A stretch of DNA of 5,897 bases. Source: a virus. The stretch's first letter is position 1; every line of letters starts with the position of its first letter. A model generated the notes under the pieces. That model worked only from the letters and a program-made list of their open reading frames with translations. It did not search any database and was not told where the DNA came from. The position numbers and the translations under genes were made by a program. Positions 1 through 5,897 of this stretch are shown here, in pieces. The stretch lies in the IMG/VR virus record IMGVR_UViG_3300022758_000044, positions 1 through 5,897 of that record; one strand, given 5' to 3'.

Positions 1-127
1 CCCCAGCCCCATTTGCGCTTGCTGTATCGCTGCTGCTTGTTGTGCTGCCGCGCCGTCGGCTCGACCTGCTTCGGCGCCTCCTGTTTCGCCTTGTGGTGCG
101 CCTGTTGTTGCTCCGCCAGCGCCGCCG
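1..127. repeat. Exact 127-bp direct terminal repeat (1..127 is identical to 5771..5897). It is a circular-contig overlap, so the unit genome is 5770 nt.
   Basis: Base-by-base comparison of the first 127 nt with 5771..5897 shows perfect identity. A length of 127 is typical of de Bruijn assembler k-mer overlaps on circular molecules. Confidence 0.95.
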
Positions 128-465
128 GCGCCACCTCCTCCGTACATGAGGCCTACTGACAGTCCCGCGTCTTCCATTTGTTCGCGCATTGCTGCGTAAC
201 TTTGGTCTTGATACGACCTTTCATACATTTCCATTTGTCGTTTGTACGCGTTTTCTGCAGCCATTTCTCCGTATTCGTAGTTGAGTTTTGCTGCTTGCTC
301 GTTCAGCTCTTTTTGTGCCTCTACTTGGCGCTTCATGCGCTTTTTTGCGCCGATTCCGCCGAATAGCGCGCCAACTGCTCCGGTTATACCCGAAGCGAGT
401 CCGCCTGTTAATCCGTCGGCAGTCGCATTTCCTACGCTATTGAGGAAGTCTCCAAATTTTCCCAT
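1..465 (-). CDS. VP2: N-terminal 155 codons of the same DNA pilot protein, with ATG at 465..463. The full protein is 384 aa (465..1 followed by 5770..5081).
   Basis: Manual minus-strand translation, in frame with the 5782 Met (which corresponds to position 12), gives MGKFGDFLNSVGNATADGLTGGLASGITGAVGALFGGIGAKKRMKRQVEAQKELNEQAAKLNYEYGEMAAENAYKRQMEMYERSYQDQSYAAMREQMEDAGLSVGLMYGGGGAGGAGGATTGAPQGETGGAEAGRADGAAAQQAAIQQAQ-MGLGLV... The first in-frame stop (TAG) is at 513..511 and the first ATG is at 465. The N-terminus is Gly-rich, as is typical of microvirus pilot proteins. Confidence 0.75.
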   Translation of the reverse strand, partial: MGKFGDFLNSVGNATADGLTGGLASGITGAVGALFGGIGAKKRMKRQVEAQKELNEQAAKLNYEYGEMAAENAYKRQMEMYERSYQDQSYAAMREQMEDAGLSVGLMYGGGGAGGAGGATTGAPQGETGGAEAGRADGAAAQQAAAIQQAQMGLG

Positions 466-570
466 ATTGTTCGATTGGTTTAATTTTTTCGCGATTTTTT
501 GTAAAAAAATCTAAAACATACCTTCTTGTTATAAAAGTATAATCGTTCACCAAAAACGATTTTGTTAAAA

Positions 571-592
571 AGGTCGGATTTTAACCCGACCT
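571..592 (-). terminator. Intrinsic-terminator-like hairpin downstream of the 117-aa ORF. On the mRNA strand: AGGUCGG-GUUAAAAU-CCGACCU followed by UUUUAAC.
   Basis: A 7-bp GC-rich inverted repeat (aggtcgg 571-577 / ccgacct 586-592). On the minus (coding) strand it is followed immediately by a TTTT run. A second, weaker stem (aatcgtt 541-547 / aacgatt 555-561) follows it. Confidence 0.5.
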
Positions 593-616
593 GTCAAAAG
601 TTCGTCATGGGTGCGA

Positions 617-970
617 TTATACGGCTGCTCCGTCATGAGGGGTCCCCTTAGGGGTTGCTTCTCCGGCTTCTCGTCCGCTCTGCTTTTCTAGGTTTTCTCC
701 TCCCATGATTTCTTCCGTTTTTGCTGCTTCGGCAAATTTCACGCTGTTGAGCTTCTCCATGGCCGCTTGTGCGATTTCGAATCTGTCTGTACGAATGTCG
801 TATTCAGGAATTACCCCTTTACTTTTCTCCGTGTAAATCATCGGCGCAACCGCTTCGATCGGTTTTTTCTCTTCTGTCGCTTTGCGCAGTTTTACCTCCA
901 GCGGTTCTGCTTCGTAGCTGTCATTTTTGATAATGCCGTGCGTTTGATAGCTGATGTTTTCTTTGTACAT
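617..970 (-). CDS. Hypothetical acidic 117-aa protein. It is a possible internal scaffolding protein (VP3-like).
   Basis: A complete ORF packed between VP1 and the pilot gene on the same strand, with no competing frame. The composition is Glu/Lys-rich and acidic, which is consistent with microvirus scaffolding proteins. No recognisable motif is present, so the function is inferred from position only. Confidence 0.5.
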   Translation of the reverse strand: MYKENISYQTHGIIKNDSYEAEPLEVKLRKATEEKKPIEAVAPMIYTEKSKGVIPEYDIRTDRFEIAQAAMEKLNSVKFAEAAKTEEIMGGENLEKQSGREAGEATPKGTPHDGAAV

Positions 971-1002
971 TTTTAGGCGTTTTTAAGTGTTTTTATATCA
1001 AA

Positions 1003-1020
1003 GTGAGGGTTTCCCCTCAC
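1003..1020 (-). terminator. Stable GNRA-tetraloop hairpin (mRNA: GUGAGGG-GAAA-CCCUCAC) 22 nt downstream of the VP1 stop. It is a candidate partial terminator, attenuator or mRNA-stabilising element.
   Basis: A perfect 7-bp inverted repeat (gtgaggg 1003-1009 / ccctcac 1014-1020) with a 4-nt loop that reads GAAA on the coding strand. It is followed on the mRNA by UUUGAUAU, a short and imperfect U-tract. Confidence 0.45.
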
Positions 1021-1041
1021 CTTGATTGTTTGATTTGATTT

Positions 1042-3033
1042 TTACAGGTTCGGAATTTGTTTTGCTGACATTTTCCGTCGTACGACGCAGTCGATTGCAC
1101 ATTGTACCCAGATGTTTTTTGCTGATAGTTTTGCATCTGCGAATGCTACGTTGTACTTCGTCGGGTCAATATACGTCGTCAGGTCGCTGATTGTTCCTGT
1201 GCTGTCATGTTCGTAGCTTCTGTTCATGGCCATGTGTGCTAGCTCTCTGAATGCAGAGAACGACCCGAACGACTGATCTACGTTAGTCATGTACTCTTGC
1301 CATGCTACTTGCTTTCCGGCTGACCTCCATACTATCGTACCGTCGGCGTTCACTTCTGTGTCGAATGCAGCCATTTCGTCCGTGATCAGCTCTTGAAACG
1401 CAATCCCGTCGAGGTTAGGCTTATGGAAATCATTCATCGTTTGTAGCCTCGTCCACCACTTGTTGCCCTGTGAGTAGTCAACGCGCGGGGTGAAGCTTCC
1501 GATAATCATGATCATCGACGGTTCTCTAATTTTGATCTTGATGCTGTTGCCTCCTCGTGCTCGGCGTTCTGCTCCTCGGCCTGCCAGCGTTCCCAGCGGC
1601 TGATCCTCTGTTGCGCTGTTGCTTACTACTTCGTCGAACACTACTTCTGACGACATTCCGCCGACATACATAGGCGATTCTGCGATTCGCAAGGCTTTTT
1701 CGTCGTATACTACTTCCTGCCATGATTGATAACTCCCATCGCTTACGGCGATTCTGTTCATCATGTCGTAGATTTTTTTCGCGAGTATCAGCGCGTCCAT
1801 TTTTAGCATGCCATCGCTGACATCTACGCTTGTAATATCCGCGATTCCGCCCTCCCCGTCAATCCATTCGGTAGATAGCCAGTTGTTGAATCTGTCGGAG
1901 AGATACGTTTTGATGCCTAACCCCGCTTGATTGAACCACGACGCGTTGCCGTTTGCGTTCGTTTCGTTTACTGTTGCGTCTGCAATACTTGCCGTGTATG
2001 GCAGACTGTTAAGGCTTCCGATGTCGAACGGTGCTGTTTTTGGCGCCGCGAGAATTGCTTCTCGCATTTCGTCGATGTTTGACAACTCGAATTTCGACAA
2101 GCCGATAGTTTCGTTGTCTACTTCGTACGCGCTTTCTCCCGGTTGAAAGTTTGTTGGGTTTGAACTCGATTTTGATGTAAATATCCAGCTGGTTGAGTTT
2201 TTCCCTACCCAGCCTGCCGGCCGTGCATCCCATAGTGCTTTGTTTTTCAAGTCGAACGTTGTACTGCTTTCTGGCGTTATTTTTACGCTTCGCGCTGTGC
2301 TTTCGTTTACTTCGCCGTTGAATATCACGTTGATTCTCCATTCGCCAGTTAATGTCGTTGAACCTACCTCTTGCCACTTCTTTTTGCTGTTTGTTTGATA
2401 CTCCGGCGTTCCGTTTGCATTATATACGGTTATTGTTTTGATCAATCCCTGTCCTTGGGTAATCACGTACCCTACTTCCTCCTGCTTGTTTGCGTAGTAA
2501 TTCTTGTAGGTGTCCCAGTACATGAGCAGAAACATTGCCGGAAATGTTCTCGCAAACGACGTTTCTCCTGTTTTGCTTCGGCCAAGGCCCCGGATTCCCG
2601 TGTATGCCATTAGGCTGTCTTGGCTGATTTGCTGGCTGTTCAAGTCGTCTTTTGTCATGTCCGGCTGATTTGCTCGTAGTTTCATTACCGGTAGTTTGAC
2701 GTTTTGCATTTTCATGCCGATTCCCAGTGCGTTGTTGTGTAACACCCTGATGTACAGCCGTATGGGCGCATGGAAGACATCGATTTGATGTTTCAGTCGT
2801 CCGAATATTGGTCCATTCGTTGGTAGTGTTCGAATTTTTGTCGTCAGGTCGATGTTGTACGTCGTGCCGTTTAGCCCGATGTCGCAGAAGTACGGCACTA
2901 GTGTTCCGATTGCTTGGTCAGTTTTGAATAACTGTCCGATGTTGTGACTACTTCTGTTGAATCCGTGCAGAGTCACGTTCATTTTGCTGCCGGAGCCGAG
3001 CCTCTCGCCTCCGAGTGCTTTTGTGATTGCCAT
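1042..3033 (-). CDS. VP1: Microviridae major capsid protein VP1 (F-like jelly-roll capsid protein), 663 aa.
   Basis: The N-terminal region NVTLHGFNRSSHNIGQLFKTDQAIGTLVPYFCDIGLNGTTYNIDL matches the conserved microvirus VP1 N-terminal signature (H-x-F-[DN]-R-S ... [LI]-[IV]-P-x-F-x-[DE]-x-x-x-[PN]-G-[DT]). At 663 aa it is in the Alpavirinae-like size range and is the largest ORF in the genome. The 6 nt between the upstream ORF stop (3040) and this ATG indicate tight packing. Confidence 0.95.
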   Translation of the reverse strand: MAITKALGGERLGSGSKMNVTLHGFNRSSHNIGQLFKTDQAIGTLVPYFCDIGLNGTTYNIDLTTKIRTLPTNGPIFGRLKHQIDVFHAPIRLYIRVLHNNALGIGMKMQNVKLPVMKLRANQPDMTKDDLNSQQISQDSLMAYTGIRGLGRSKTGETSFARTFPAMFLLMYWDTYKNYYANKQEEVGYVITQGQGLIKTITVYNANGTPEYQTNSKKKWQEVGSTTLTGEWRINVIFNGEVNESTARSVKITPESSTTFDLKNKALWDARPAGWVGKNSTSWIFTSKSSSNPTNFQPGESAYEVDNETIGLSKFELSNIDEMREAILAAPKTAPFDIGSLNSLPYTASIADATVNETNANGNASWFNQAGLGIKTYLSDRFNNWLSTEWIDGEGGIADITSVDVSDGMLKMDALILAKKIYDMMNRIAVSDGSYQSWQEVVYDEKALRIAESPMYVGGMSSEVVFDEVVSNSATEDQPLGTLAGRGAERRARGGNSIKIKIREPSMIMIIGSFTPRVDYSQGNKWWTRLQTMNDFHKPNLDGIAFQELITDEMAAFDTEVNADGTIVWRSAGKQVAWQEYMTNVDQSFGSFSAFRELAHMAMNRSYEHDSTGTISDLTTYIDPTKYNVAFADAKLSAKNIWVQCAIDCVVRRKMSAKQIPNL

Positions 3034-3039
3034 GTTTTT

Positions 3040-3399
3040 CTACTTTTTTTTCGTTCGATTTTGTGTTTCCCATGCGTCGCGATACACTGCCGTGGCGATA
3101 AAAATTAGGTCCCATCCTTTTTCGTCCACTGCTTTCTGTGCTGCTTCGATGGTTTTGTATTTTTCCGGGCTTACAGCCTGTCCGGCCAGCACCAGTGTAT
3201 ACCCTTCCTTTCGTTTTCCAACGGCGTAGAACGGCCCGCGTTTGAGCGGCGCCCAATCGAAATTTTCGACTTTTTCCGTCGTTTCTTTCACTTCAGAAGA
3301 GTTTGAGCTGTTCAGGAGCTCTCTGAATTTCCCCGATTCTTCTGATTGTGTGCACGTACGTGCCGTAAGGTTCTTTTTGCTCGATGATTTTTGTGCCAT
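3040..3399 (-). CDS. Hypothetical protein, 119 aa from the first ATG. The true start may instead be the GTG at 3291..3289, giving 83 aa.
   Basis: An ORF ending 6 nt before the VP1 ATG. The C-terminal two-thirds (FDWAPLKRGPFYAVGKRKEGYTLVLAGQAVSPEKYKTIEAAQKAVDEKGWDLIFIATAVYRDAWE) looks like a folded domain. The N-terminal 36 aa are low-complexity Ser/Lys and overlap the 66-aa ORF in another frame. A GTG lies 2 nt after that ORF's TGA. Confidence 0.5.
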   Translation of the reverse strand: MAQKSSSKKNLTARTCTQSEESGKFRELLNSSNSSEVKETTEKVENFDWAPLKRGPFYAVGKRKEGYTLVLAGQAVSPEKYKTIEAAQKAVDEKGWDLIFIATAVYRDAWETQNRTKKK

Positions 3400-3493
3400 A
3401 GCTTTTGTAAATTTTGTTAGTTAGTTGTTGTTTTGACCATATCACCCCGTCCTCGTCTACGTATGTAACCGGGAGATATTTTTTTGTTTTCAT
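3293..3493 (-). CDS. Hypothetical small protein, 66 aa.
   Basis: A complete ORF whose ATG (3493..3491) lies 1 nt after the TAA of the preceding 67-aa ORF (TAAcATG), typical of translationally coupled phage genes. The sequence is non-repetitive and protein-like (MKTKKYLPVTYVDEDGVIWSKQQLTNKIYKSYGTKIIEQKEPYGTYVHTIRRIGEIQRAPEQLKLF). Confidence 0.5.
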   Translation of the reverse strand: MKTKKYLPVTYVDEDGVIWSKQQLTNKIYKSYGTKIIEQKEPYGTYVHTIRRIGEIQRAPEQLKLF

Positions 3494-3494
3494 G

Positions 3495-3698
3495 TTAGTA
3501 CGCTGCGTTGTTTGTTTTTGTTTTTATCCACATCTCTACCGAGTCTGTGTGTAAGCCTTTTTTGTGCAATATGTAACTTGCACTACAGCTCGTGAACGTC
3601 AGTATTATTGTCACAAGCAAAGCAATTATCGAGATAATCACTTTCGCCCATGTCGGCTTTGTCTTTGCCCAGTTCAGAAATTTCGTGATGTATTCCAT
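3495..3698 (-). CDS. Small single-pass membrane protein, 67 aa. It is a candidate lysis protein (phiX174 E-like amurin or holin-like).
   Basis: An amphipathic N-terminus followed by a clean 19-residue hydrophobic helix (VIISIIALLVTIILTFTSC) and a short polar, basic C-tail. It overlaps the 3' end of the 112-aa ORF by 116 nt in a different frame (overprinted arrangement). Confidence 0.5.
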   Translation of the reverse strand: MEYITKFLNWAKTKPTWAKVIISIIALLVTIILTFTSCSASYILHKKGLHTDSVEMWIKTKTNNAAY

Positions 3699-3921
3699 AG
3701 CGTAATAGTTCTTCTTTGATTTGATTTAATTTGTACTCGGTTGTCCAGATGTCTTTTAATAGAGACTCTTTTTTGAGGAGGAGCTCGCCCCAGCTCTGGC
3801 GCAGATTTTTGATTTTCCATTCTTTGTTTGTCATAGTGATGTTGTTTTCTGCAAATGTATAAAACTTTTTCCTTATAATCCAAATTTTTTGCGGCTTTTT
3901 TTGTATTTTTTTAAGTTCCAT
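3583..3921 (-). CDS. Hypothetical protein, 112 aa from the ATG at 3921 (overlapping the Rep 3' end by 49 nt), or 84 aa from the ATG at 3834.
   Basis: An ORF on the gene strand immediately after Rep. Its central region is coiled-coil-like (KEWKIKNLRQSWGELLLKKESLLKDIWTTEYKLNQIKEELLRYG). The start codon is ambiguous and there is no SD to arbitrate. Confidence 0.4.
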   Translation of the reverse strand: MELKKIQKKPQKIWIIRKKFYTFAENNITMTNKEWKIKNLRQSWGELLLKKESLLKDIWTTEYKLNQIKEELLRYGIHHEISELGKDKADMGESDYLDNCFACDNNTDVHEL

Positions 3922-4811
3922 GGTTCCGCAGGATAACCGAGAGCTACGTTTTCGTCTTGTCTGTATTTTAGTGCTTGGTCGTACTCTCGTTCGCCCTCCA
4001 TTGTTGACACGTCGATTTTTTCACCTCTGACGTATCGCGTTTGTTTGTTGAGTTTTTGTAGCCATAGTTGTTCGCGTTCCTCGTCTGTCCATAGTTTGTT
4101 CCGATAGTATATTGGTAAGGCTAGTTTTTGCCCTGCCGGCGTTTTGTAATACTCTCGTGTGTTTTCTCCTTGAAACTTATTGAGTCTTGCGTCGTATCTG
4201 TTTAGCCACCCTTTTCCTAGTCCTTTTGATGCGAATACTTTGCTTGTAAATCCTGAGTGTGCCGTGTCTACCTTGCTTACATATTTCACGCAGTATCCCA
4301 CTGACCTGTCGTTTACGTACTCTCCTGTGTCCACCCATCCGTATCCCCATATTTCTTCGATTTCTGCGGCACTTTTTGTTGTCCATAGAAAGCCGTGTAA
4401 GTGCAGCCTTTCTGTGCTTTTGTGAAACTCTGCTCTTTTTCCGTGGCCCAATTCCGTGACGAGCCAATGTTTGATTGATTCGTTGTATTTCTTAATCCAT
4501 CGCTTTCCAAATAGCTTGATAGCTCGGGCTGCTATCTCGTTCGGGTCTTCTGTTTTGCATTCTTTTTCCAGTTTATCGAGTGCTTCGTTGCTGAAGGTCA
4601 TTGTCATGAAGAGTGCCCGCGCGTCGTCTTTCAATTCTTCGTGTAGTCGCACTTGCCACTCGCGCGCTTTTTTTTGACGGCATTCTATGCATTTTCCGCA
4701 TCCGAAAGGTACTGCTTTTACGCGTGCGTCCGGCGCCTCTGGTACAAAGCCGCCGTTTTTCCGATTTGGCAAATATTTTGGGTTTGTCCCTATCCTGCTA
4801 TACAGGCACAT
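3873..4811 (-). CDS. VP4: Microviridae replication initiation protein VP4 (HUH rolling-circle endonuclease, phiX174 gpA family), 313 aa, with the start refined to the ATG at 4811..4809.
   Basis: Motif I is FMTMTF, motif II is HLHGFLW (HUH), and motif III is YCVKYVSK (two catalytic Tyr; compare phiX174 gpA YVAKYVNK). The N-terminus MCLYSRIGTNPKY...PFGCGKCIECRQKK matches the microvirus VP4 start (MC...P[CF]G.C..CR). The 148 codons upstream in the track ORF (4812..5255) are an Arg-rich translation of a GC-rich non-coding region and are excluded. Confidence 0.93.
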   Translation of the reverse strand: MCLYSRIGTNPKYLPNRKNGGFVPEAPDARVKAVPFGCGKCIECRQKKAREWQVRLHEELKDDARALFMTMTFSNEALDKLEKECKTEDPNEIAARAIKLFGKRWIKKYNESIKHWLVTELGHGKRAEFHKSTERLHLHGFLWTTKSAAEIEEIWGYGWVDTGEYVNDRSVGYCVKYVSKVDTAHSGFTSKVFASKGLGKGWLNRYDARLNKFQGENTREYYKTPAGQKLALPIYYRNKLWTDEEREQLWLQKLNKQTRYVRGEKIDVSTMEGEREYDQALKYRQDENVALGYPAEPWNLKKYKKSRKKFGL

Positions 4812-4833
4812 ATTGATGATGATAACACTGTAG
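4809..4833 (+). promoter_or_regulatory. Candidate viral-strand replication origin. It is a 25-nt segment, cacatattgatgatgataacactgtag, similar to the phiX174 gpA origin CAACTTG|ATATTAATAACACTATAG. The TTG|AT nick dinucleotide is conserved.
   Basis: An ungapped alignment gives 19/25 identities, including the complete ATAACACT core and the TTGAT nick-site context. It lies at the 5' end of rep, where phiX174 has its ori inside gene A. The match is on the window + strand, antisense to the genes. The comparison is to the phiX174 ori as recalled from memory. Confidence 0.35.
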
Positions 4834-5080
4834 GTATATACTAATCGCGCTGCCGTTAAGAATGGCCGAGTAATGATTTCCGGTGCCGAAGAAATCGCGG
4901 ACGCGAGTTCGAGGCCCTGAAATCGCGCAGGCCGTTTAGGCGCGCAGTTCTCGCGCTCGAAAGTACCGCCTTTCGAAGCGTATAGTAATTGTTGTGAAGG
5001 CAGAGCGGTTGCCCGCCCTGCCTTGCTTGCGCGTTGTGACTTGTTGCGTGTGTGCGCGTGTCTGACACGTGCGCGCGCGC
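4812..5080. promoter_or_regulatory. Structured GC-rich intergenic region between the pilot stop and the Rep start. It is a candidate complementary-strand origin or primosome assembly site, or a Rep/host-factor binding region, and presumably holds the rep promoter.
   Basis: The region is about 58-60% GC, against about 47% for the rest of the genome. Hairpins occur at 4875-4896, 4953-4980 and 4999-5022 (a 10-bp stem; on the coding strand the loop is a GNRA GCAA tetraloop). There is a perfect 13-bp palindrome cgtgtcTgacacg at 5057-5069, flanked by alternating purine-pyrimidine tracts (5046-5062, and (GC)5 at 5071-5080). A direct repeat GAAATCGCG occurs at 4891-4899 and 4919-4927, with TAATCGCG at 4842-4849. 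No ORF here has a credible composition. Confidence 0.55.
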
Positions 5081-5897
5081 TTACCAAATCATTCGCGCCA
5101 CAGGTTTTCCGTCGGCGCCGTATATTGTAGGCACATCCACTTTTTTGACAGCGTTTTGCGGACCTCGGAGCGCTTTGGCTCCCGCCTTGAAGCCAATGAT
5201 TCGCCCGGCAATGTCCGTGAGCATCTGTGCCCCTTGCGCTGCGTAATCTGCCCATGTTTTCCAGTTTGTGTATTCGCCTGTTTCGAAGAGCGTCGCCAGC
5301 TCTTTGGCTTTCGCTTCCAGCATGCGCGCATCTGCGTTTTTCGCCGCCGCTAGTGCTTCCATGTACACGTATTTCTTTTTCTCTGTGTTCAGTTCGGCGA
5401 GTGCTTTGGCTGCTGCTGCGTTTTGCTGTCGTTCGTAGATTTGCGCCTGCGTGTTTAGCACGTCTTGCGTTCCCTGTCGTGATTTTAGGCGACGTCCGAT
5501 AATCGAGTGTTCTCCAAACATGTCGTCGTATGCGTCGAGTCTGTCCTTTTCGTTTCCTTCGAAAGCGTCGTCGAAGTAGCTTTCCAGATTTCGAATATAC
5601 TCGCCTTTTCCTCTCTCGAAGAGCTCCCGATATTTGACTGGTCGCATTTGCATTTCCGTGATTTTCTGTTCGGTGATGTTCTCTGCTTCTGCTCGCTGTT
5701 TTGCTGCTGCTGCGTTGATTTCGTCAATCTGTGCATCTTTCACTGCAAGGTCTTTTTTCATCGATACGAGCCCCAGCCCCATTTGCGCTTGCTGTATCGC
5801 TGCTGCTTGTTGTGCTGCCGCGCCGTCGGCTCGACCTGCTTCGGCGCCTCCTGTTTCGCCTTGTGGTGCGCCTGTTGTTGCTCCGCCAGCGCCGCCG
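5081..5897 (-). CDS. VP2: Microviridae DNA pilot / minor capsid protein (VP2-like), C-terminal part. The reading frame runs open off the window end and continues, by circular wrap, into 1..465.
   Basis: A 233-aa ORF (5081..5782) rich in Ala/Gln/Glu coiled-coil sequence (AAAAKQRAEAENITEQ... QQNAAAAKALAELNTEKKKY). The frame stays open upstream through the 127-bp repeat. The gene sits between VP1 and Rep, as in gokushovirus-like and Alpavirinae-like genomes. The stop codon TAA is at 5081..5083. Confidence 0.8.
   Translation of the reverse strand, partial: GGAGGATTGAPQGETGGAEAGRADGAAAQQAAAIQQAQMGLGLVSMKKDLAVKDAQIDEINAAAAKQRAEAENITEQKITEMQMRPVKYRELFERGKGEYIRNLESYFDDAFEGNEKDRLDAYDDMFGEHSIIGRRLKSRQGTQDVLNTQAQIYERQQNAAAAKALAELNTEKKKYVYMEALAAAKNADARMLEAKAKELATLFETGEYTNWKTWADYAAQGAQMLTDIAGRIIGFKAGAKALRGPQNAVKKVDVPTIYGADGKPVARMIW

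Follow-up and report, generated by a model that had tools for sequence, protein, structure and literature searches.

The virus record IMGVR_UViG_3300022758_000044 in IMG/VR, of which positions 1 to 5,897 were analyzed (this whole stretch of 5,897 nucleotides is the window), carries on its minus strand an open reading frame (ORF) of 67 codons at positions 3495-3698. A sequence-only reading had placed this ORF correctly, from its ATG to its TAA, and proposed that it encodes an overprinted protein with a single transmembrane (TM) segment and a possible role in host lysis. This ORF is a genuine gene, which is conserved and has evolved under purifying selection in its own frame, and the architecture of its product makes it very probable that the gene encodes a lipoprotein of the signal peptidase II (SPII) type. 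The gene, its predicted parts, and the ORF that it overlaps are as follows.

3495..3698, minus strand: gene for a 67-amino-acid predicted lipoprotein precursor, with an ATG start and a TAA stop at 3495-3497; MEYITKFLNWAKTKPTWAKVIISIIALLVTIILTFTSCSASYILHKKGLHTDSVEMWIKTKTNNAAY
3642..3698, minus strand: leader n-region, codons 1-19, MEYITKFLNWAKTKPTWAK; predicted amphipathic helix with a conserved W..K..P.W.K motif
3588..3641, minus strand: predicted signal-peptide hydrophobic core with lipobox positions -4 to -1, codons 20-37, VIISIIALLVTIILTFTS; 19-residue Kyte-Doolittle value (KD19) 2.64
3585..3587, minus strand: Cys38 codon TGT, predicted lipidation site and position +1 of the mature lipopeptide
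3498..3587, minus strand: predicted mature lipopeptide, codons 38-67, CSASYILHKKGLHTDSVEMWIKTKTNNAAY; the strongest purifying selection in the gene (ratio of nonsynonymous to synonymous substitution rates, dN/dS, 0.20)
3583..3834, minus strand: upstream coiled-coil ORF, 83 amino acids from MTNKEW; open from 3921 (112 amino acids)

Because the window holds 71 ORFs of at least 30 amino acids in its six frames, the length of the 67-codon ORF is no evidence by itself. ORFs of similar size are thus common by chance, and the nearest GenBank record leaves this one unannotated, both of which would fit a chance ORF that is open only through its overlap with a true upstream gene in AT-rich sequence. The substitution patterns lead to the rejection of this idea, which retains a negligible probability. 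The gene occupies the same position in relatives, and neither stop codons in the frame nor loss of the hydrophobic segment is found there: all 25/25 complete close relatives (viral and metagenome contigs) have exactly 67 codons in this frame. In pairwise comparisons of 20 unique sequences, dN/dS is 0.20 in the free codons 39-67, the lowest value of the region, and 0.45 in the overlapping codons 2-38. Inside the overlap, 25 of 38 third codon positions of this frame are variable, versus 15 of the first and 14 of the second positions (Fisher p=0.009), so that the variability tracks this frame and not the upstream one. The same third-position excess is seen in two independent clades with a different mature peptide (type B, below), one of which has 2/3/13 variable sites at codon positions 1/2/3 of the leader and 1/0/14 in the mature part. 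Furthermore, homologues exist where the gene overlaps nothing or overlaps another gene.

About 190 homologues of the 67-amino-acid protein were found, all of them small except for some long forms described below, and wherever their context is readable it consists of microvirus genomes or Bacteroidales prophages. A search of 5.8 billion proteins with a profile yielded 107 homologues at E<=0.01, whose contigs almost never exceed a microvirus genome in length, and an exhaustive hidden Markov model search of 1.84 billion cluster representatives (50% identity) yielded 87 matches, of which about 75 are proteins of 58-120 amino acids with the same layout. Among GenBank microviruses beyond the close set, 6 of the 8 examined carry a family member, including Blackfly microvirus SF02 and several fecal viruses of rodents and lemurs; the gene is kept in most of the lineages sampled without being universal in the clade. 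The ORF is unannotated in MG945515 (1114-1317), MG945511 (1088-1300) and OM869549 (4801-5007), unlike the overlapping upstream ORF, which is annotated in MG945515 and OM869549. Since the family is either missed or labeled "hypothetical" in the GenBank records examined, catalogues of gut microvirus genes under-count it. Scans against Pfam, PHROGs, NCBIfam and PADLOC returned no significant family for the 67-amino-acid protein, and full-text literature searches returned no paper that ties Microviridae to a lipobox or to a phage-encoded lipoprotein. This is a previously undescribed family of microvirus proteins, in which a conserved leader is joined to several unrelated types of mature peptide. 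One entry in nr (P0107, a truncated gene call of 39 amino acids) bears the name "MAG TPA: Lysis protein", the basis of which is not traceable.

The amphipathic N-terminus noted in the sequence-only reading is borne out. The helical hydrophobic moment of residues 2-13 is 0.53, compared with 0.26 +/- 0.13 for shuffled sequences, of which 1.9% reach the observed value. Residues 1-19 contain four lysines and one glutamate, and K6 falls within the first seven residues, as the charge rule for SPII signals demands. The motif P-x-W-x-[KRQ] recurs in 40/75 small cluster representatives, even beside unrelated mature peptides. The 19-residue hydrophobic stretch described earlier is indeed the exact hydrophobic maximum of the protein (residues 20-38, VIISIIALLVTIILTFTSC, Kyte-Doolittle mean 2.64); what has to be revised is its description as a simple TM anchor, since it ends in the invariant cysteine of a lipobox. 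An alignment of 38 sequences (A2, 15-91% identity) has two invariant columns, Met1 and Cys38, and no others. The cysteine is retained in 107/108 family members and is the single cysteine of 101/108. The core of the PROSITE PS51257-type lipobox, [LIVMFWSTAG]2-[LIVMFYSTAGCQ]-[AGS]-C, is matched by 100/108 members, and 4 of the 8 that fail are N-terminally truncated gene calls; a slightly relaxed pattern is matched by 71/82 further representatives listed. Position -1 in the 100 matching members is S in 75, G in 23 and A in 2, and position -2 is mostly T; the family lipobox reads [F/A/L]-T-[S/G]-C, with F-T-S-C in the window, where the protein shows the uncharged core followed by the lipobox (...IILTFTS-C). 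Members with a short leader, whose cysteine lies at 25-33, resemble ordinary SPII signals; one of them, MKNLSPNVKKAIYGVLTALVALAAALLGLTSC|NVTR..., is encoded directly 5' of VP1 in a Paludibacteraceae prophage. The weak NCBIfam matches of family members are almost all to lipoprotein families, although all are below threshold and cover the signal peptide only. Because the hydrophobic segment ends in the invariant lipobox cysteine, the "TM helix" is most likely the hydrophobic core of a lipoprotein signal peptide, and the product a cleaved, lipidated peptide of about 30 amino acids.

Some features sit less comfortably with a lipoprotein. Position -3 is usually F or A and not L; the cysteine at residue 38 (also the family median) falls a little outside the 15-35 window of the PROSITE rule, because of the extra amphipathic n-region; this n-region is itself longer and more conserved than is usual for a segment that serves export only; and the AlphaFold2 model is of low confidence (mean pLDDT, the predicted per-residue confidence, 65, and about 50 over the mature part). 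Residues 2-13 and 16-37 are helical in the model, and 41-50/53-62 form a beta-hairpin of low confidence.

The predicted mature peptide is 30 amino acids long in the window, close to the family median of 31. The C-terminus had been called a short basic tail; it is mildly basic, with 4 K, 2 H, 1 D and 1 E, yet, at 29 residues past Cys38, it is not especially short. Mature residues +2 to +4 are drawn from S/T/A/V/N/Q, and an acidic residue (Asp) occurs only once among 100 members. In Bacteroidota, an acidic signal after the cysteine marks lipoproteins that are exported to the surface (PMC12889592). Lacking acidic residues at +2 to +4, the mature peptide is therefore without the surface-export signal of Bacteroidota.

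Across the family, the leader follows the consensus ME.lKK.l.WlK.lP.W.[KR], about 18 hydrophobic residues, and [ST][SG]C, and recurs with unrelated mature peptides. Type B (..VVQSAYNTATGDSIVIRYEQ.GK) accounts for 27/75 small representatives and type A/C (..G(V/I)H.D(S/T)V..., the kind in the window) for 14/75, while the other 34/75 have different mature peptides that are often rich in S/T/N; members of this last class, on contigs of 1-2 kb, adjoin microvirus capsid genes. Two chimeras, P0063 and P0064 (1,127-nt contigs), join a near-identical type-A leader to a type-B-like mature part, CSASHYVAQSVSSYTKGDTTTTIIKYEQVGNIRK, which indicates modular exchange at or just past the lipobox. A type-C member also lies in a prophage (L067), beside FimD/FimE-type and ZnuA genes. 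In addition, there are long type-C forms of 172-217 amino acids (P0135, P0153-P0157, P0167, P0182 and P0185, and 1512-2114 of locus L069), in which a normal leader and mature peptide are followed by a low-complexity extension of about 130 amino acids. All of them end in ...RRGGRRG..(K/R)P(K/R)..K.IPLGG(S/K)HL directly upstream of the Rep gene, whereas the related prophage L067 has a separate, unrelated ORF of 104 amino acids in place of the extension. The long forms could be read-through products, fusions with a basic DNA-binding protein, or frameshift products.

The overprinting on a 112-amino-acid ORF, as previously described, is real in that the two frames share 116 nt (38 of the sense codons of the upstream ORF and its stop), while the size of the partner needs correction. 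The upstream ORF (3921..3583) most likely starts at the internal ATG 3834, past the VP4 stop, giving 83 amino acids; its MTNKEW start is seen in all relatives with enough upstream sequence, except one with NLTNKEW. This ORF is labeled "similar to VP5" in one GenBank relative. Its conserved part ends in ...L(L/K)(R/K)YG (...LLRYG in the window, 3697-3834), and the ATG of the lipoprotein gene is nested in the codons TAT-GGA for the final Y-G. Its last 36 codons (within 3583-3698) form a non-conserved tail over the lipoprotein leader. The dN/dS of the upstream ORF is 0.34 in its free part and 0.94 in the overlapped tail, which thus evolves neutrally. In other clades the tails comprise 7, 13, 37, 41, 45 or 70 residues of unrelated sequence, and in some lineages the lipoprotein gene lies beside different genes, overlaps another gene, or is clear of the upstream ORF altogether. 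The upstream stop, TAG, is formed by the last base of the Cys38 codon (TGT) and the AG of Ser39. No stop can form in the upstream frame across the hydrophobic stretch, because the T at the second base of the hydrophobic codons is the third base of the upstream ones. The codon structure thus makes the overlap a passive one: the upstream tail stays open mechanically, by way of hydrophobic codons that read NNT in that frame. The likeness to gene E embedded in gene D of phiX174, drawn in the sequence-only reading, does not survive these findings, as the overlapped upstream tail is unconstrained, variable in length and not essential coding sequence, and the overlap is absent from some lineages.

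The long ORFs of the window all lie on the minus strand and match microvirus proteins; the genes that frame the lipoprotein gene are the following.

3033..1042, minus strand: major capsid protein VP1, matching Phage_F and phrog_514
within 5255..3873, minus strand: replication initiator VP4, matching a microvirus protein
465 across the junction to 5081, minus strand: pilot protein VP2, a 384-amino-acid ORF that is intact after circularizing
3293..3493, minus strand: conserved 66-amino-acid ORF, its ATG one base past the lipoprotein stop, in a tightly packed co-oriented cluster

The window ends in an identical direct repeat of 127 nt (1-127 and 5771-5897), the signature of a circular contig that was assembled with an overlap, and the true genome is 5,770 nt; only when one copy of the repeat is removed does VP2 read as a single intact ORF. 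Homologues of the 66-amino-acid ORF (MKKY(L/M)P(V/T).YVD..G...) come after the lipoprotein gene in L001-L005 and L038-L043. A second overlapping pair lies at 3293-3399 on the minus strand, where the last 107 nt of this ORF (3493..3293) overlap the 5' end of a 119-amino-acid ORF (3399..3040) in a different frame. The same loci contain both ORFs with a similar overlap, and both partners look conserved, unlike those of the lipoprotein overlap. The VP4 frame has 148 extra open codons (4812-5255, minus strand) 5' of the conserved MCLYSR start that all relatives use; this extension overlaps the 3' end of VP2, is rich in Arg and Ala, lies in a GC-rich region (0.55-0.57, versus 0.36-0.40 in the small-gene cluster), and is probably not translated.

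The nearest GenBank record is MG945515, from dog feces (88% nucleotide identity over 94% of the window), and MG945634, MG945452, MG945511 and MG945396 are more distant relatives. When bacterial genomes were scanned with the capsid as seed, relatives turned up as integrated copies in large contigs of Dysgonomonas, Paludibacteraceae and Phocaeicola, and the hosts are therefore Bacteroidales. Microvirus-sized contigs are also filed under genomes outside Bacteroidota, namely L010 (an Acinetobacter lwoffii assembly, 5.7-kb contig) and L013 (a Faecalimonas metagenome-assembled genome, 8.3-kb contig). As every copy that is truly integrated sits in a Bacteroidales contig, these are probably contamination or mis-binning and not evidence for Acinetobacter or Faecalimonas as hosts.

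The absence of E and the usual absence of a peptidase, which the sequence-only reading had stated for gokushovirus-like and Alpavirinae-like microviruses, hold for this genome, in which no ORF, including the re-joined VP2, matches a peptidase, lysozyme, holin or defense family. By inspection, no other small ORF on the gene strand contains a comparable hydrophobic segment, the pilot protein VP2 apart. Across 27 related loci of at least 4.5 kb, 21 carry the lipoprotein only, 3 a hydrolase only, 3 neither and 0 both, counting as hydrolases Peptidase_M15_3 or Amidase_2. Thus 3 of the 6 lipoprotein-less loci carry a hydrolase just upstream of VP1 (Peptidase_M15_3 in L011 and L012, Amidase_2 in L015). 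This complementarity of lipoprotein and hydrolase suggests that the lipoprotein supplies a lysis function; the chance that its role is in lysis or progeny release is put at roughly even. The hydrolase-bearing loci also contain small ORFs with a single TM segment (86, 48 and 47 amino acids in L011, L012 and L015), located near the hydrolase in L011 and L012 and past VP2 in L015. The regions concerned are listed here.

L011, 5018-6004: hydrolase and TM-ORF region
L012, 2759-3243: hydrolase and TM-ORF region
L015, 3511-3936 and 7408-7551: hydrolase and TM-ORF regions

In L011 and L012, the TM ORF and the hydrolase are possibly a minimal holin-endolysin pair. The 86-amino-acid TM ORF has a weak match to Amj (alternate to MurJ) at E=0.0036, below threshold.

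A number of considerations weigh against a role in lysis. The 27-locus table is small and non-independent, because many of the positive loci are closely related and were retrieved via the lipoprotein itself; the hydrolase search in the other genomes was made with three query sequences alone; and 3/27 loci carry neither gene. In the unbiased, capsid-seeded set of 7 loci, the counts for lipoprotein, hydrolase and neither are 3/3/1 (Fisher p about 0.11). Most of the known small lipoproteins encoded by phages act in superinfection exclusion or as spanins, and not as sole lysis factors, and the existence of several unrelated types of mature peptide also fits an arms-race function such as receptor masking.

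The most serious competitor, held to be less probable than lysis or release, is a lipoprotein for superinfection exclusion or receptor masking, which would bind the outer-membrane receptor of the phage or block the DNA-pilot conduit formed by VP2, and would protect infected or lysogenic cells and spare progeny from being lost on debris, as do Llp of T5 and Cor of phi80. The signs of a lipoprotein architecture speak equally for this explanation. Unrelated mature types on one conserved leader, together with the P0063/P0064 chimeras, form the pattern expected of an arms-race specificity module; integrated prophages retain the gene (L014, L067), part of the clade is without it, and 1/38 members gives one weak match to EexN, an entry-exclusion lipoprotein (E=0.068). 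However, no significant similarity to an exclusion or defense family was found in the PHROG, Pfam, NCBIfam and PADLOC scans, and mature peptides of one type are strongly constrained (dN/dS 0.20) and give no indication of diversifying selection. A genome of about 5.8 kb is under tight size constraint, yet the gene is kept in most sampled lineages; its distribution is complementary to that of peptidoglycan hydrolases and not independent of it; and were it devoted to exclusion alone, the genome would be left without any lysis candidate. Lysis or release is favored over superinfection exclusion.

It is also conceivable, though improbable, that the product is never cleaved and acts as a single-pass membrane protein (an amurin similar to E, or a holin-like protein) through its amphipathic and TM helices, the conserved cysteine serving otherwise, for instance in a disulfide at the membrane surface. 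Across the superfamily, conservation is higher in the leader, with its n-region, TM helix and conserved Pro15 and Trp17, than in the mature part, a pattern that recalls phiX174 E, whose activity resides in the TM domain and whose C-terminal part is replaceable. The position of Cys38 past the PROSITE window and weak matches to Phage_holin_1 from two members (best E=0.022, below threshold) are consistent with this notion. It leaves unexplained, however, why an uncleaved anchor should carry the signature of a lipobox, with S/G/A at -1 in essentially all members and an invariant cysteine, and it does not fit the short-leader members of SPII type (P0066, P0093, L014), which are entirely without the amphipathic n-region. 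Moreover, there is no match to the Microvir_lysis family, and no endolysin is encoded for a holin to release. What probability remains beyond lysis, exclusion and an uncleaved protein goes to some other role at the envelope.

Returning to a lipoprotein that serves lysis or release, the lipoprotein export pathway (Sec, Lgt, LspA) suggests the following course. The precursor would insert in the inner membrane and Cys38 would be diacylglycerylated, after which LspA would cut between Ser37 and Cys38. The product of this cleavage, a peptide some 30 residues long and anchored by its lipid, would be freed on the periplasmic side and would probably not be exposed at the surface, given that it has no acidic export signal past the cysteine, while the leader peptide of 37 residues would remain in the inner membrane. 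With less certainty, the product may be the envelope effector of the phage, a single-gene lysis factor of the lipoprotein type that resembles, in outline, the colicin lysis lipoproteins, and would replace the cassettes of TM protein and peptidoglycan hydrolase that lie beside the capsid gene in sister microviruses. How lysis might follow can be proposed only tentatively: the leader may bring interchangeable, lipid-anchored beta-hairpins, each of about 30 residues, to the envelope on its periplasmic face, where they would block an essential step of envelope biogenesis. The target would then be, as an equally tentative suggestion, a component of the peptidoglycan-precursor, Bam or Lpt machinery, for example, and the Bacteroidales cell would undergo autolysis without a muralytic enzyme.

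Host lysis in Microviridae is understood only for the phiX174-like phages (PMC3394797), and the one lysis proposal that the main surveys make for gut microviruses of Bacteroidales, which are abundant, is an occasional M15 peptidase (PMC3394797, PMC9239249). For the genomes without M15 peptidase, the lipoprotein gene is a concrete, widespread and easily testable candidate, and a compact one, with an ORF of 201 nt and one predicted critical residue, Cys38. If the candidate holds true, a lipoprotein route would be added to the known strategies of single-gene lysis, and it may point to a vulnerable target in the Bacteroidota envelope. A peptide that blocked envelope biogenesis in this way would found a novel class of phage "protein antibiotic", and microviruses of Bacteroidota would have their first defined lysis mechanism.

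Among the systems with which the lipoprotein can be compared, phiX174 E (Pfam PF04517, Microvir_lysis) is likewise a small, membrane-targeted microvirus product whose gene overlaps another frame, and, as with E, the genome encodes no muralytic enzyme and offers no other candidate for lysis. In phiX174, the whole of E is contained in D, an essential gene; the E protein has no lipid anchor of the lipoprotein kind and blocks MraY from inside the membrane. E is an inhibitor of cell-wall synthesis (PMC3394797). In the present case, unlike E, only the leader (codons 1-38) overlaps, and it does so on a neutrally evolving tail; moreover, the 67-amino-acid protein has neither sequence similarity to E nor a match to Pfam Microvir_lysis. 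Lambda Rz1 and other o-spanins are also small phage lipoproteins, encoded by genes that overlap a neighbor, and these outer-membrane proteins act in lysis. In contrast to Rz1, the mature peptide described here is not rich in proline and has no second cysteine, and the NCBIfam spanin2 match is weak (E=0.031, 14 bits versus a cut-off of 100). A spanin was rejected, there being no i-spanin partner and no family match to an endolysin or holin; when the upstream coiled-coil ORF was inspected, its N-terminus was seen to lack the hydrophobic segment that would suggest an i-spanin. The holin class was similarly set aside, as the genome contains no hydrolase that could be the partner endolysin, and the hydrolase-bearing sister genomes are without this gene. 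T5 Llp and the Cor proteins of phi80 and N15 are small phage lipoproteins that are exported by the SPII pathway of the host and act on the cell envelope. No sequence relationship to superinfection-exclusion lipoproteins of the Llp/Cor type was detected with PHROG, Pfam, NCBIfam or PADLOC, and, compared with them, the mature part is half the size, and the distribution of the gene is complementary to that of lysis enzymes.

The colicin lysis or bacteriocin-release proteins (BRPs; Pfam PF02402, Lysis_col), such as ColE2 CelB and the cloacin DF13 BRP, are, like the product predicted here, very small lipoprotein precursors, and their mature part of about 27-30 residues past the cysteine (alignment A6) compares with 30 in the window. 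In some BRPs, the leader peptide is stable and adds to the toxicity. The leader of the microvirus protein is twice as long as that of the colicin lysis proteins and has a conserved amphipathic n-region, and the context differs as well, being a phage genome with a Bacteroidales host in the one case and an SOS-controlled colicin operon of Enterobacteriaceae in the other. Profile comparison of A2 with A6 by hhalign gives a probability of 68% over 19 columns, which comprise the hydrophobic core, the lipobox and 5 residues, and detects no homology to the mature peptide of the colicin lysis proteins (CQANYIRDVQGGTV...PSS); Lysis_col is likewise absent from the families listed in the per-member Pfam scan at E<=10. 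Homology was rejected on these grounds. Since the two profiles agree over the signal peptide and lipobox alone, the likeness is one of function and architecture and not of homology, and it is to a class of proteins that serve as the sole release factor for a macromolecular cargo and whose expression kills the producer by quasi-lysis (PMC9517006).

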